The notes beneath the pieces are model-generated. The model saw only the letters and a list, made by a program, of their open reading frames with translations, ran no database searches and had not been told where the DNA came from. From Candidatus Scatovivens sp. (GTDB taxonomy: Bacteria; Bacillota; Clostridia; TANB77; CAG-508), in the NCBI GenBank assembly GCA_045646345.1, contig JAZRKN010000014.1, positions 32,001 through 96,000 on the forward strand: 64,000 nt of DNA, given 5' to 3'. Every line of letters begins with the position of its first letter. Position 1 is the stretch's first letter. Position numbers and translations under genes: made by a program. Below are positions 6,473-64,000 of the stretch, one piece after another.

Positions 6473-7906
6473 TTATTTTGTACGATCTTTTGAGTTTCCA
6501 AATTTGTCTAATACAACTACTTTTGAACCTGGTATAATAATTGTTGTAGAATCAACTGCTAATTCTTTTAAAATATCTGCAGCATCTAATAAGTCTTTAG
6601 TTGTAGCTCCGTATTTTAATTTTATTCCATTTAAAAATTCTTCATCTAAGGTTAAAGAAATATTTGGTGAGTTTAATTGATCATCTGGAATATGAGCTAA
6701 AAGTTCATTTCTAAGCATAAACTTATTAAATGAAATTAAATTTTCATAAACTCTTTCATAATTAACTCCAGTTTTTAAAAGTGATTGCATAGAATCTAAA
6801 TCTTGTGCTCTCGGAGTTCTTTTAAAGTAATTTGAATGAGATAAAAGTGCTGCTAATTTTTTATCATTTGGGCTATCTGGTGCTGGTGTGAAATTATGTA
6901 GTTGTTCAAGAGATGATTGGGTTATTTCTTCTAGTAATTTTCTTGAAACAGAACTAAGTGAATCTTGGGAAGAGATAGTACAACCAGACGCATTGTGATG
7001 ACCACCGCCACCATTATTATTTGCCAAAGGAAATACATCAATATCACCACAAAAAGAAATACTTCTAAATTCACATTCGTATTTATGTGTTTCTTCTGCA
7101 GCGATAATCATATTTATACTAGTATCTTCAATATTTGCCAATTTAAAAATCTTTTTAGGAATATTAGTTACTCCATATTTTTCTTTTAATTCTTTAAGTT
7201 GATCGTTTTCTAAACCTAAATAATTTATGTAAGTATTGCCAACTTTTATTCTTTGAACTCCTAAGAATGCTTTTGCAAGTCCAACTTCACTTTTTAAAGA
7301 TCTTCTTTTATTTAATATGCCTTGAACGCGACTTAAATTTCCACCAGTTTTTAAAAGTAATTTTAAATTATCTAATGTTCCAGGTTTTAAATGTCTGAAA
7401 CTTGCAGTATCTGTACTCATACCAACTAATAGCATTGTTGATAAATCTGGATTTAATGCTTTCATATAATGTAATTCTTTTGCGATAATTTCACATGTAG
7501 AACTAAATTTAGGATTACGAAAGATATTTTCTTTTGGCACTTTTAAATCTTCTTCAATAGCAGGTGTTCCGGGAGCTTTTTCATGATGATCTAAAATATA
7601 AATGTCTTCTGGTTTAGATGATTTAAATAAATTATTTTCAGCATGTGCTAAAGTTGATGTGTCTAAAATAATTGAGATACATTCGTCGTTGCTTGGATTT
7701 TTAGATTGTTCTGTATAACCAAGAAGTGGAACATAAGCATTATTTGGTCTGCTTGTTACAACATATTGTGCATCAATTTTATTAGATTTAAAAAATCTTT
7801 CTAAAGTCTTTGATGAAGCAACTGCATCTCCATCAGGTTTTTTATGTGCAATTATAATTATTTTTTTATGGTGTTTTTGAGCTTTTTCTAAAATTCTTTT
7901 TAACAA
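6473..7906 (-). CDS. DHH/DHHA1 phosphoesterase (NrnA-like) with duplicated C-terminal extension
   Basis: HKKPDGDA, ILDHH, SSTCE, TDTASF, GGGGHHNASG; TTG start with AGGAG RBS. Confidence 0.85.
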   Translation of the reverse strand: MLKRILEKAQKHHKKIIIIAHKKPDGDAVASSKTLERFFKSNKIDAQYVVTSRPNNAYVPLLGYTEQSKNPSNDECISIILDTSTLAHAENNLFKSSKPEDIYILDHHEKAPGTPAIEEDLKVPKENIFRNPKFSSTCEIIAKELHYMKALNPDLSTMLLVGMSTDTASFRHLKPGTLDNLKLLLKTGGNLSRVQGILNKRRSLKSEVGLAKAFLGVQRIKVGNTYINYLGLENDQLKELKEKYGVTNIPKKIFKLANIEDTSINMIIAAEETHKYECEFRSISFCGDIDVFPLANNNGGGGHHNASGCTISSQDSLSSVSRKLLEEITQSSLEQLHNFTPAPDSPNDKKLAALLSHSNYFKRTPRAQDLDSMQSLLKTGVNYERVYENLISFNKFMLRNELLAHIPDDQLNSPNISLTLDEEFLNGIKLKYGATTKDLLDAADILKELAVDSTTIIIPGSKVVVLDKFGNSKDRTK

Positions 7907-8152
7907 TATATATTTCTCCTTAATAATTTACTTTACATAAATATTATATCACAAATAATAAATTTGGTAAAGTTTGTAAGAAAAAGTCGAAAAGTTTAAA
8001 AAATAATAAAAAATTTTAAAAAAAACTTGTAATTTTATTAAATTAATGATATAAATAATGCATTGTTGAAGGCAAGAAAAGCCTTTAAAATCAATGATTT
8101 TCTTGGATTAGAAGAATAAAAATAAAATTTTTAAAAAAATTTTAAAAAAGTG

Positions 8153-8181
8153 TTGACATCTTTTAAAAAATGTTGTAATAT
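8153..8181 (+). promoter_or_regulatory. SigmaA promoter of tRNA operon
   Basis: TTGACA-17-TAATAT with A/T-tract UP region, ~40 nt before tRNA-Lys. Confidence 0.65.
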
Positions 8182-8221
8182 ATAAAGGCAGTCGCGTTAC
8201 AGATTGCCATACAATATGTAT

Positions 8222-8297
8222 GGGCTATTAGCTCAGATGGTAGAGCACTTGACTTTTAATCAAGTTGTCCCGCGTTCGAATCGCGGATAGCTCACCA
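8222..8297 (+). tRNA. tRNA-Lys(TTT)
   Basis: Cloverleaf; anticodon arm CTTGA-CTTTTAA-TCAAG; GTTCGAATC; CCA end. Confidence 0.97.
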
Positions 8298-61958: not shown

Positions 61959-61985
61959 TATAAAAAAGAAGGACACCTCTTGAAA

Positions 61986-62654
61986 TCAAGAGGTGTCTTT
62001 GTCGTATACAACAACGTTTTCTAGAACAATTGCCATAACATGTTTTTTCTTTTGCCGTCTAGCATGATGCAATACATGCAAACCTTTGATAACCCAACCG
62101 TTAGAAGATACAATTATTGGATGTGGATACTGTCCCCAATTACGATAATAAGAACTTACTAATTTACTCTTTTTTTCGGATAGCCGATTGAAAGAGATAT
62201 ATTTAGCAACGTTTTCAAATTCGTAAGATGAAAGCCAACGTCTTTTAATTACAAATCGTCCACGGCGAGCAACGCTTAAGTTTCGAACCAAGGTTTGTTG
62301 ATAATATTTTTCCTTTTCGCCTTGTGTTTCGAATTTTCTCCATTCTTGGAATTGCCGATAAGTCATATCTTTTTTGTCTTGATTGCATTTCTTGCATGAA
62401 GGGAGTAAGTTTTCAGGAATACTGACTCCGCCCCATCTTCTTGGATACATGTGATCCAAAGTACGAGTTTTCATCGTTAGTTTTTCGCCACAGTAACAGC
62501 ATCTATCATAGCCTTTAAGAACATACGTTATGGTGTACATTAAGTCCTCGAAATTGGTATATTTACTCATATATAAAATGCCATTTTCGACATATGCACC
62601 GTCTTCATGTCCTTTGTTGCTGTAGATAAATCGTTCGGGCAACCGTATAATCAT
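61986..62654 (-). CDS. HNH endonuclease with ParB/Srx-like C-terminal domain
   Basis: CCYCG..TLDHMYPRRWGG..ENLLPSCKKCNQDK; PHPIIVSSNGWVIKGLHVLHHA. Confidence 0.75.
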   Translation of the reverse strand: MIIRLPERFIYSNKGHEDGAYVENGILYMSKYTNFEDLMYTITYVLKGYDRCCYCGEKLTMKTRTLDHMYPRRWGGVSIPENLLPSCKKCNQDKKDMTYRQFQEWRKFETQGEKEKYYQQTLVRNLSVARRGRFVIKRRWLSSYEFENVAKYISFNRLSEKKSKLVSSYYRNWGQYPHPIIVSSNGWVIKGLHVLHHARRQKKKHVMAIVLENVVVYDKDTS

Positions 62655-62851
62655 ATTCGATCACTCCTTTTTGATAACGGGTTTTTTATTCTAAATAATA
62701 ATATAAAGAAAAATAAAAGATGTCAATCCAAAAAACAGAATAAAAAGTAAAAGATAAATTATTATTAAAATAAAAGCTTTAAAATGTATTGACTTCAAAG
62801 AGTAGTGGTGATATAACGATGCTGAAATTAAAATAAAGAGGATGTTTAGTT

Positions 62852-64000
62852 ATGAAAAAAGCGATTATAGCCTTAGATGGTGGCGGAAGTAATTTAAGAA
62901 TGGTTGTTGCTGACTATGATACAGAAGAACCTATATATTTTAATGAAATAAATACAGGAACTAATTTATCTACTGTTCCAAATAGAGAAGAAGCTATAAA
63001 TAATATACAAAATTTGATTGTAGAAGGTTATCAGAATATGCCTGCTGGTTATGAACTTTCTGGAATAGGATTATCAAGTGCAGGAACTGAAATTGAACAA
63101 AACAGAATAGATTTAGCAAATTCTATAGTTTCTGCAATAAAAAGAATAAAAACTCAACATCCGGGAATGAAAAAAACGGAATTTTTTGTAACTAATGATA
63201 TTGATATATTATTACATTCTTCAGATATTGCATTAGTTGCTGGAACAGGGACTGTTGGCGCGGTAAAATATAAAGATATAAAACCTTATGATAATACAGA
63301 TGTTGAACCTGAAGATTACACAATAGAAAAACTAGACGGAGATGGAGAATATATTGGAGATAAAGGTTCTGGTTATTGGATTGCAAAAGAAGTTTTAACA
63401 AGAGTAGGACAAATTGAAAAATTAGGACTTTATATAAACAGCAACGGTGACGTAGTAAGAGATAATACTTATTATTTGAGAGAAATGGTAATAGATAAAC
63501 TGTTAGATCTTAATGGTTATTCTGAAAAAGATAAATATAGAGCTAAAGCACTTGGATTAAGAGAAGCGGGACTTCCAGAATACGTTTCTTTAGTATATTC
63601 AATTACTGAAGAAAATGGAAGGCCATTTGATAGAGCAAAAGTAGGAAATCTTTTTGGAAAAGTTGCAGAAGAAGCAGCTTTGCAAGGAGATGAAGTTGCA
63701 AATGATGTTTTAAAAGGTGCTGCATTAGAATTATTTAAAAATGTTGTTGCAGCATACGAAAAAGGTGATTTTGAAAGTAAAGAATATTGCGATTTATTAG
63801 TTAGTGGAAGTGTACTTGTAAAAAATAGAGTTGTAAGATTTTTCTTGGAAGATATGATAAGACAAAATTATCCAAACATTTCTGTTAAGGTAAATCAAGA
63901 AAAGCCAGTAATGTCTACTGTTAAATATGTAAAAAGTAAAGTAAAAACATTAACTCCTTCAAAAAATTTAAATAATTTAAGCAAAGAACATGAAGATAGA
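62852..64000 (+). CDS. BadF/BcrAD-family sugar kinase (N-acetylglucosamine kinase-like); stop not in window
   Basis: Manual translation MKKAIIALDGGGSNLR, SSAG, VTNDID, LVAGTGTV, DGDGEYIGDKGSGYWIA, VSGSVL; last codons NLNNLSKEHEDR. Confidence 0.85.
   Translation, partial: MKKAIIALDGGGSNLRMVVADYDTEEPIYFNEINTGTNLSTVPNREEAINNIQNLIVEGYQNMPAGYELSGIGLSSAGTEIEQNRIDLANSIVSAIKRIKTQHPGMKKTEFFVTNDIDILLHSSDIALVAGTGTVGAVKYKDIKPYDNTDVEPEDYTIEKLDGDGEYIGDKGSGYWIAKEVLTRVGQIEKLGLYINSNGDVVRDNTYYLREMVIDKLLDLNGYSEKDKYRAKALGLREAGLPEYVSLVYSITEENGRPFDRAKVGNLFGKVAEEAALQGDEVANDVLKGAALELFKNVVAAYEKGDFESKEYCDLLVSGSVLVKNRVVRFFLEDMIRQNYPNISVKVNQEKPVMSTVKYVKSKVKTLTPSKNLNNLSKEHEDR

Follow-up and report, generated by a model that had tools for sequence, protein, structure and literature searches.

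A candidate acidic C-terminal export signal in Candidatus Scatovivens and a type IV secretion system conserved in the order TANB77

Do the similar charged tails of unrelated proteins in one region of the Candidatus Scatovivens sp. genome serve as an export signal, and for which machine? The region is a 64,000-nucleotide stretch (G000:C14:32001-96000, hereafter the window) of a genome (G000, C-numbers denoting its contigs) of 1.79 Mb and about 28% GC that is 96.7% complete. A first-pass annotation had proposed that a shared charged C-terminal tail marks a dispersed set of translocated effectors. Our results suggest that a degenerate C-terminal signal for export by a type IV secretion system (T4SS) marks about 40-50 effectors, with another bacterium as the probable target, a reading to which we give a probability of about 0.6. 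Both the tag, in a narrower form, and a secretion system were found; the link between them is suggested by distribution and by analogy with known signals, and translocation and a bacterial target are inferences.

The acidic tag and its distribution

Genes were called with our own script for open reading frames (ORFs; 1577 ORFs, 87.5% coding), and the C-termini considered here are independent of the choice of start. Proteins that matched well in each of two relatives, G119 (same family) and G164 (another family), were called core, and those matched in neither were called orphans. Both relatives are near-complete, were read nearly whole, have smaller genomes and possess the T4SS; the orphan set includes some metabolic genes because these small genomes lost them.

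Lys, Glu and Arg are enriched near protein ends throughout the genome, so that "charged" alone tells little. A loose rule (at least 6 charged among the last 10 residues) gave no orphan/core contrast, with 38/352 soluble orphans against 33/308 soluble core proteins, and the generic charged tail of the first-pass annotation was ruled out as a signal. A tight acidic motif holds beyond composition. Among 1485 ORFs, [DE][DE]R within 4 residues of the stop was observed 19 times against 5.5-7.0 expected, and [DE]DR-stop 7 times against 0.5-0.6, under three kinds of shuffle preserving composition or per-position frequencies. The motif is terminal, with 18 cases in the last 4 positions and 0-5 in every other 4-residue bin. 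It is present in 16/324 soluble orphans, 0/297 soluble core proteins and 1/259 membrane orphans (p 3e-5 for soluble orphans against core, an optimistic value because the pattern was picked after inspecting the tails). The annotation had held that its reading would fall if the tail motif were no more frequent in orphans than composition predicts, or if the genome lacked a candidate secretion system; both checks were made and left it standing, as the tight motif exceeds that expectation and a chromosomal T4SS is present. Evidence independent of this post hoc choice comes from the homologue tails of two enzymes, described below.

A looser polar-acidic rule (no more than 2 hydrophobic residues between -16 and -4, and 2 or more acidic residues in the last 7) is satisfied by 39/324 soluble orphans and 12/297 soluble core proteins. 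One or the other rule selects 52 non-core soluble proteins, of which the window has 8; the 52 belong to 49 unrelated families, and false positives are among them, because the looser rule also catches those 12 core proteins and 6/77 outgroup proteins, in a control that is weak because it is small (77-88 proteins, GC 36-51%). The tagged genes are dispersed over 13 contigs without tie to a mobile element. An unsupervised position-weight mixture of the tails was discarded, as it collapsed with 93% of orphans in one class. The acidic C-terminal tag is confined to soluble non-core proteins.

In the window, the ten C-termini quoted by the first-pass annotation are all present as given, and the stop of the ORF at 62852, unseen there, falls 3 bases past the window edge on the genome contig. 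Eight of the ten tails fit the tight motif or the polar-acidic rule, while those of the protease at 23021 and the DHH protein at 7906 fit neither, and the latter was wrongly listed as a tailed example. None has an obvious Sec signal, as had been noted: N-terminal hydrophobicity is below 1.7 in 10/10 (highest 1.66), a cut-off that is a proxy and not a signal-peptide predictor. In the BadF kinase the tag does lie after the catalytic domain. Two known signals had been offered as analogies; Arg-rich VirB/D4 tails fit poorly, as 6/8 tailed window proteins have no net positive charge over their last 10 residues, and the acidic Dot/Icm type fits better.

Homologous tails, C-terminal modules and cargo

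Among the matches listed for the BadF kinase there were 120 homologues, 118 of them full length, with 55-100% identity and 83 distinct tails. The last residue is R/K in 75/83 tails, the second last D/E in 61/83 and the fifth last D/E in 64/83, and 57/83 end in [DE][RK]. The last position stands at 1.4 bits, against 3.0-3.7 bits at -6 to -16, where the linker varies freely. For the HAD phosphatase at 38268, 9/10 orthologues (39-66% identity, in unrelated gene neighbourhoods) end in [DE][RK]; the other YqeG-like copy in the genome (C1:171833) has no tag. Such counts are not independent, because homologues are kin. Two unrelated enzyme families therefore retain the same [DE][RK] tip across genera. 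A tailed PfkB paralogue had no orthologue at E<=1e-40 among 120 family genomes, hence no tail comparison.

Families of the helicase and protease type end instead in helical modules of 40-60 residues that recur on unrelated bodies. The acidic tip of the helicase is retained in its 7 closest homologues, and distant ones differ in their end residues. A profile of five helicase ends matches two G119 orphans (E 1e-6 and 9e-3), with no decoy under 0.1. The 38833 protein shares its C-terminal stretch with an 808-aa orphan (44% identity, E 3.6e-5) without any homology of the bodies. HExxH is present in 44/45 distinct homologues of the protease, whose C-terminal end is conserved and is predicted to form three short helices past a low-confidence linker at residues 561-574; a fold search with it gave no significant match, which does not show a new fold. 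A module profile built from the relatives finds nine proteins of seven body families, eight of the nine being its own training set, and matches seven protease homologues weakly (best E 0.011). As it matches no G000 protein under E 0.1, a single universal C-terminal domain was rejected, and so was the protease end as a shared module, since its profile gave convincing matches within the protease's own family only. The signal may therefore be degenerate and bipartite, with lineage-specific tips.

The majority of tailed proteins match no family; the remainder are BadF and PfkB kinases, HAD, HD and inositol-monophosphatase-like phosphatases, a nucleotidyltransferase, metalloproteases, an LRR protein and a helicase. 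These genes are patchy among family genomes (BadF in 2/151, HAD in 11/121 and PfkB in 1/121, counting G000). Residues 758-837 of the helicase resemble RpoD/SigA (E 3e-4 to 8e-4), and RNA polymerase (RNAP) alpha-CTD or sigma modules are added in many of its homologues; this favours a bacterial target, although such modules could also act in the cell's own cytoplasm.

The secretion machine, its coupling protein and a companion family

There is no secretion machinery in the window, as the first-pass annotation had stated, but 37 kb past it on the same contig lies a chromosomal T4SS locus. It comprises seven tandem T4SS_pilin genes, a VirB3-sized gene, a TrsD-like gene, VirB4, several single-pass genes, four polytopic VirB6-like genes and, at its end, a glucosaminidase gene. 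PF18895 was detected on all seven pilins, six over cut-off, and 80/80 related loci hold 1-9 pilins each. VirB4 matches PF19044 over cut-off and a CD1110-family model at E 7e-61, which misses the cut-off of the latter since a separate gene, the TrsD-like one, encodes the N-terminal part. Candidates for VirB3, VirB6, VirB8 and VirB1 fit in size, topology and position, and their matches to membrane proteins of integrative and conjugative elements are weak. Within the order, 144/150 genomes have a VirB4 match (E<=1e-150, 60-80% identity); a class-wide sample gave it in 8/8 in-order genomes and in 2/191 other Clostridia, those at 30-35% identity. The records related through VirB4 (Ca. Scatovivens, UBA7001, Clostridium sp. 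CAG:571) are ones that we take to belong to the order TANB77, family CAG-508. The coupling protein VirD4 is encoded among housekeeping genes on C11, unlinked to VirB4; it matches the CD1115 family over cut-off and is present in 39/40 genomes of the order and 20/20 of the genus. With this placement, a chromosomal, pilin-bearing T4SS is conserved across TANB77.

No Dot/Icm family (DotM, DotL, IcmSW) matched the proteins scanned, the genome not having been searched for these families. WXG100 (PF06013), the partner expected with type VII secretion substrates, was not found in the 96.7% complete genome. The genome also has a Tad/Flp-like pilus locus, which contains several pilin-like genes and one for a CpaF-type ATPase. 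A TANB77 Tad/Flp-like pilin cluster has been published, and the words VirB and T4SS do not occur in the accessible text of that paper (PMC11680825; here and below, citations refer to the accessible parts of each source).

The VirD4 frame is broken by one extra base before Walker A, where an in-frame CGG is followed by A. The break is common to G000 and 8/9 same-genus loci; eight other loci are intact and six were not deciphered by pattern. When CGGA is read as Gly, the frame is open for 686 residues. CGGA stands at 4/4 frame splits detected against relatives' proteins. An early stop with an open +1 frame is more frequent among ORFs with CGG (10/47) than among those with CGA (1/258), CGC (2/126), CGT (5/488) or AGG (9/427), and a tRNA-Arg(CCG) was not found in G000 or G119. 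The break is therefore probably recoding rather than decay, with +1 frameshifting or four-base reading at CGG-A as its likely form. A 2026 genetic-code preprint (10.64898/2026.04.02.715157) leaves the meaning of CGG in Clostridia unresolved, and frameshifts are not mentioned in its accessible text. Further split genes that resume as Gly in the +1 frame at CGG-A are C1:31847, C1:157806, C15:219162 and C15:270302.

An unnamed family of proteins of about 150 aa accompanies some of the tailed genes. It has 15 copies in G000, one of them in the window, and is distributed over 4755 clusters at 50% identity; it was found in 47/60 family genomes and, in the class-wide sample, in 5/8 in-order genomes vs 0/191 other Clostridia. 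No Pfam/NCBIfam or fold match was obtained, the latter not showing a new fold. For the 12 copies with a same-strand gene just upstream, that gene encodes a soluble orphan in 11 cases (background 349/1434) and a tailed protein in 6 (background 52/1434). In other genomes, 12/28 held-out genes upstream of a companion fit the looser rule, against 11/598 core genes and 0/17 downstream genes; none of the upstream genes has the tight motif, and 40/40 encode soluble proteins, of 31 families. Only 6/52 tailed genes of G000 have a companion. Because one family stands beside many unrelated enzymes, chaperone or adaptor fits better than cognate immunity, and the companions are candidate cytoplasmic chaperones or adaptors. 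Some members are tandem duplications or fusions to a larger protein (P0122, P0130, P0245). The companion's C-terminal amphipathic helix was tried as a shared effector motif and showed no clear enrichment in tailed proteins.

A type IV export reading and its alternatives

In the reading that we favour, about 40-50 soluble lineage-specific proteins would carry, as a T4SS export signal, a polar linker followed by an acidic tip that often reads [DE]-x-[DE]-[RK]. This signal would be bipartite and degenerate, a short helical module with a lineage-flavoured acidic tip. The C-terminus would be recognised by VirD4, whose full-length form probably arises from a +1 slip at CGG-A. The companions may serve as cytoplasmic chaperones or adaptors for some substrates, and on contact the cargo would pass into a second cell, with a bacterial host the likeliest; delivery of this kind has been proposed for Patescibacteria.

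Several known systems are close. Patescibacteria (Ca. Southlakia epibionticum) share with TANB77 a monoderm envelope, a small genome and a chromosomal MPF-FATA-like locus (PMC12102498, PMC12857230), with tandem VirB2-like pilins, a TrsD-like gene next to VirB4 and candidate VirB3/VirB6-like genes, all lineage-wide; VirB2 pilins are otherwise absent from Gram-positive T4SSs (PMC12857230). The machine described here differs in belonging to an order of Clostridia and in having several extended VirB6-like genes, an unlinked VirD4 and a retained core Replic_Relax gene. The accessible text of the two papers names neither substrates nor a signal for the patescibacterial system. Saccharibacteria systems have been speculated to co-opt hosts (10.1101/2023.05.02.539146), and TANB77 has been described as likely parasitic (10.1101/2024.12.11.627901). 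The Dot/Icm system of Legionella is known to use acidic C-terminal signals together with small chaperones (PMC10025392). There too a degenerate, polar, acidic signal, the E-block, ends unrelated, dispersed, fast-turning-over enzymes, and the IcmSW chaperones assist some substrates as the companions may do; the tag in G000 is likewise a Glu/Asp-rich cluster near the C-terminus of unrelated proteins. Unlike in Dot/Icm, its acidic residues reach the very end, often with an R/K cap, and the companions are many gene-linked copies rather than one shared pair. The signals of Agrobacterium VirB/D4, Bartonella (BID) and Xanthomonas (XVIPCD) are also C-terminal, the last two being bipartite with a small domain and a tip, and XVIPCD effectors target bacteria (PMC10025392). 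Unlike the Arg-rich Agrobacterium tail, most tails in G000 range from neutral to acidic and have just one Arg, at the end. Pfam/NCBIfam scans gave no BID or XVIPCD match on the tailed proteins scanned, whose modules are of about 40-60 residues and several unrelated types. The 89K island T4SS of Streptococcus suis is Gram-positive too and exports a protein (SspA-1), but it is island-borne, with one known substrate and no pilins in the accessible description (PMC12857230). In its action the tag may resemble the acidic signals of Dot/Icm, with a machine of patescibacterial type, but by homology it belongs to neither signal family. We found no literature on the TANB77 T4SS, its substrates or the tag, supplements and subscription papers lying outside the coverage.

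Several results weigh against this reading. The tight motif is nearly absent from the two relatives that possess the machine (0/108 soluble orphans in G119, 1/174 in G164); the looser rule is enriched in G119 (8/93 soluble orphans vs 4/306 core proteins) but not in G164 (4/147 vs 7/292), and it also catches the core and outgroup proteins mentioned above. Comparison with homologues, which favours the tag for the BadF and HAD families, gives a [DE][RK] end in just 1/90 distinct tails of helicase homologues and 2/45 of protease homologues. The interrupted frame of VirD4 belongs here as well, and so do two core genes that point to DNA: a Replic_Relax protein (PF13814; 4/4 in-order genomes vs 1/115 outside), encoded about 10 kb from VirB4 in one family, f3, and a second, divergent coupling-like protein, each of the two being kept in G119 and G164. 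Because of these two genes the machine may also, or mainly, move DNA.

A domesticated conjugation system moving DNA with Replic_Relax, in which the tagged proteins travel along into kin cells, much as helper proteins are transferred by conjugative elements, and not into a host, is the alternative that we take most seriously, though we consider it unlikely. The best matches of VirB4 and VirD4 are indeed to the conjugation families CD1110 and CD1115. However, the dispersal of the tagged genes, untied to a mobile element, does not suit it, and the pilin array matches the patescibacterial system, whose locus is mostly relaxase-free (PMC12102498). The relaxase families PF03432, PF18555, PF03389 and PF02486 were not found in the 96.7% complete genome, although the core PF13814 protein is present; a MobV relaxase, without such a tag, was found only on a small integrase element. 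That element has an integrase-like gene with MobV, and a methyltransferase-like gene adjoins it. A somewhat slimmer chance goes to a tag that acts inside the cell, in degradation or adaptor binding, with the companions as antitoxin-like partners of toxic orphan enzymes. The gene pairs look like toxin-antitoxin pairs, the tag is as short as a degron, and many of the tagged enzymes could damage their own cell; yet one companion family behind 31 unrelated families is unlike cognate immunity, few tagged genes have a companion at all, and the range of the family coincides with that of the VirB4 subfamily.

Export by another route, such as the Tad/Flp pilus, or toward animal gut cells or the medium, appears improbable. 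The Tad-like locus and the published TANB77 pilin cluster (PMC11680825) speak for it, whereas WXG100 was not found in the 96.7% complete genome and the helicase family's sigma-region-4 and RNAP-alpha-CTD modules suggest bacterial targets. Nor is Tad export known for soluble enzymes with a C-terminal tag. An origin of the tails as a side effect of K/E-rich, AT-rich coding, or of Shine-Dalgarno overlap at gene ends, is hardly credible for the tight motif, for which this explanation is already largely refuted: the motif exceeds composition-matched shuffles, its terminal residues are conserved past a variable linker, and a same-strand neighbour lies within 12 bases in just 1/17 tight-motif genes. 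Composition does fully explain the loose charged tail, and Shine-Dalgarno overlap, otherwise rejected as the cause, accounts for that single gene, which overlaps the next start.

If the type IV export reading holds, TANB77 injects proteins into other cells. The tag, the substrate list and the candidate chaperone family would make the role of Gram-positive T4SSs as dedicated effector translocators, a long-standing question (PMC12857230, a 2025 review), testable, together with the uncultured state of TANB77. The reading predicts a dependence of these common gut Clostridia on a bacterial host and names proteins to seek inside it, and the tag would offer a route to mining thousands of orphan enzymes for antibacterial or host-manipulating activities. 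A broader version, which we hold tentatively and at somewhat less than even odds, is that the whole order consists of Patescibacteria-like gut parasites of bacteria, whose pilin-bearing Gram-positive T4SS injects a large and rapidly changing set of effectors into their hosts, with an undescribed acidic signal, a huge unnamed chaperone family and a coupling protein made by CGG-A frameshifting.

Table 1. Features in the window (window positions) and elsewhere in G000 (contig positions).
Feature	Position	Strand	Evidence
BadF/BcrAD-family kinase, tight acidic-Arg tag beyond domain	62852..64000, stop 64001-64003	+	PF01869 residues 8-348
Second YqeG-like HAD phosphatase paralogue, tailed	38268..38768	+	TIGR01668 just under cut-off
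Orphan, tight tag	38833..39672	+	No Pfam/NCBIfam match; 39-residue C-terminal stretch shared with unrelated 808-aa orphan
SF2 helicase, sigma-region-4-like segment, C-terminal helix and acidic tip	51773..54748	+	ResIII/Helicase_C
Orphan, polar-acidic tail closing in Arg	60101..60760	+	Tail rule
Nucleotidyltransferase-like orphan, polar-acidic tail	32403..33608	+	PF14907 below cut-off; tail rule
Orphan, polar-acidic tail	42135..43232	+	Tail rule
Orphan, polar-acidic tail	56482..57672	+	Paralogue C16:21647 likewise tailed, different letters
HExxH metalloprotease-like orphan, family-specific conserved C-terminal module, not acidic tag	23021..24847	+	Listed by context
Companion-family member, about 150 aa, candidate chaperone/adaptor	24840..25280	+	Directly downstream of 23021 protease gene
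Second, extended NrnA-like DHH paralogue, no tag	6473..7906	-	Outside both tail rules
T4SS locus	C14:133442-155594 (wider span to 157354)		37 kb past window
VirD4	C11:129170-131231		CD1115 family
Replic_Relax protein	C15:217772-218707		PF13814
Second coupling-like protein	C15:214739-217099		Core
MobV integrase element	C1:222143-225739		MobV relaxase
Tad/Flp-like pilus locus	C15:105-117 kb		CpaF-type ATPase

Some neighbouring and related genes deserve mention. The untagged NrnA-like DHH gene at 6473-7906 (reverse strand) is a diverged second copy with a 150-residue extension, and an ordinary paralogue is also present in the genome. A diverged kinase with an acidic tail (G000:C4:34201-34938) is related to the C1:10122 protein, its ordinary paralogue. 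At 20303-22300 (reverse strand) there is a CbbX/SpoVK-type AAA ATPase with a 390-residue unknown N-terminal part, which has a 1086-aa relative at C17:40180. The higher-GC gene at 30236-31411 sits in a stretch of 35-37% GC (24-32 kb of the window), and its paralogue at C3:62478 has a common C-terminal end.

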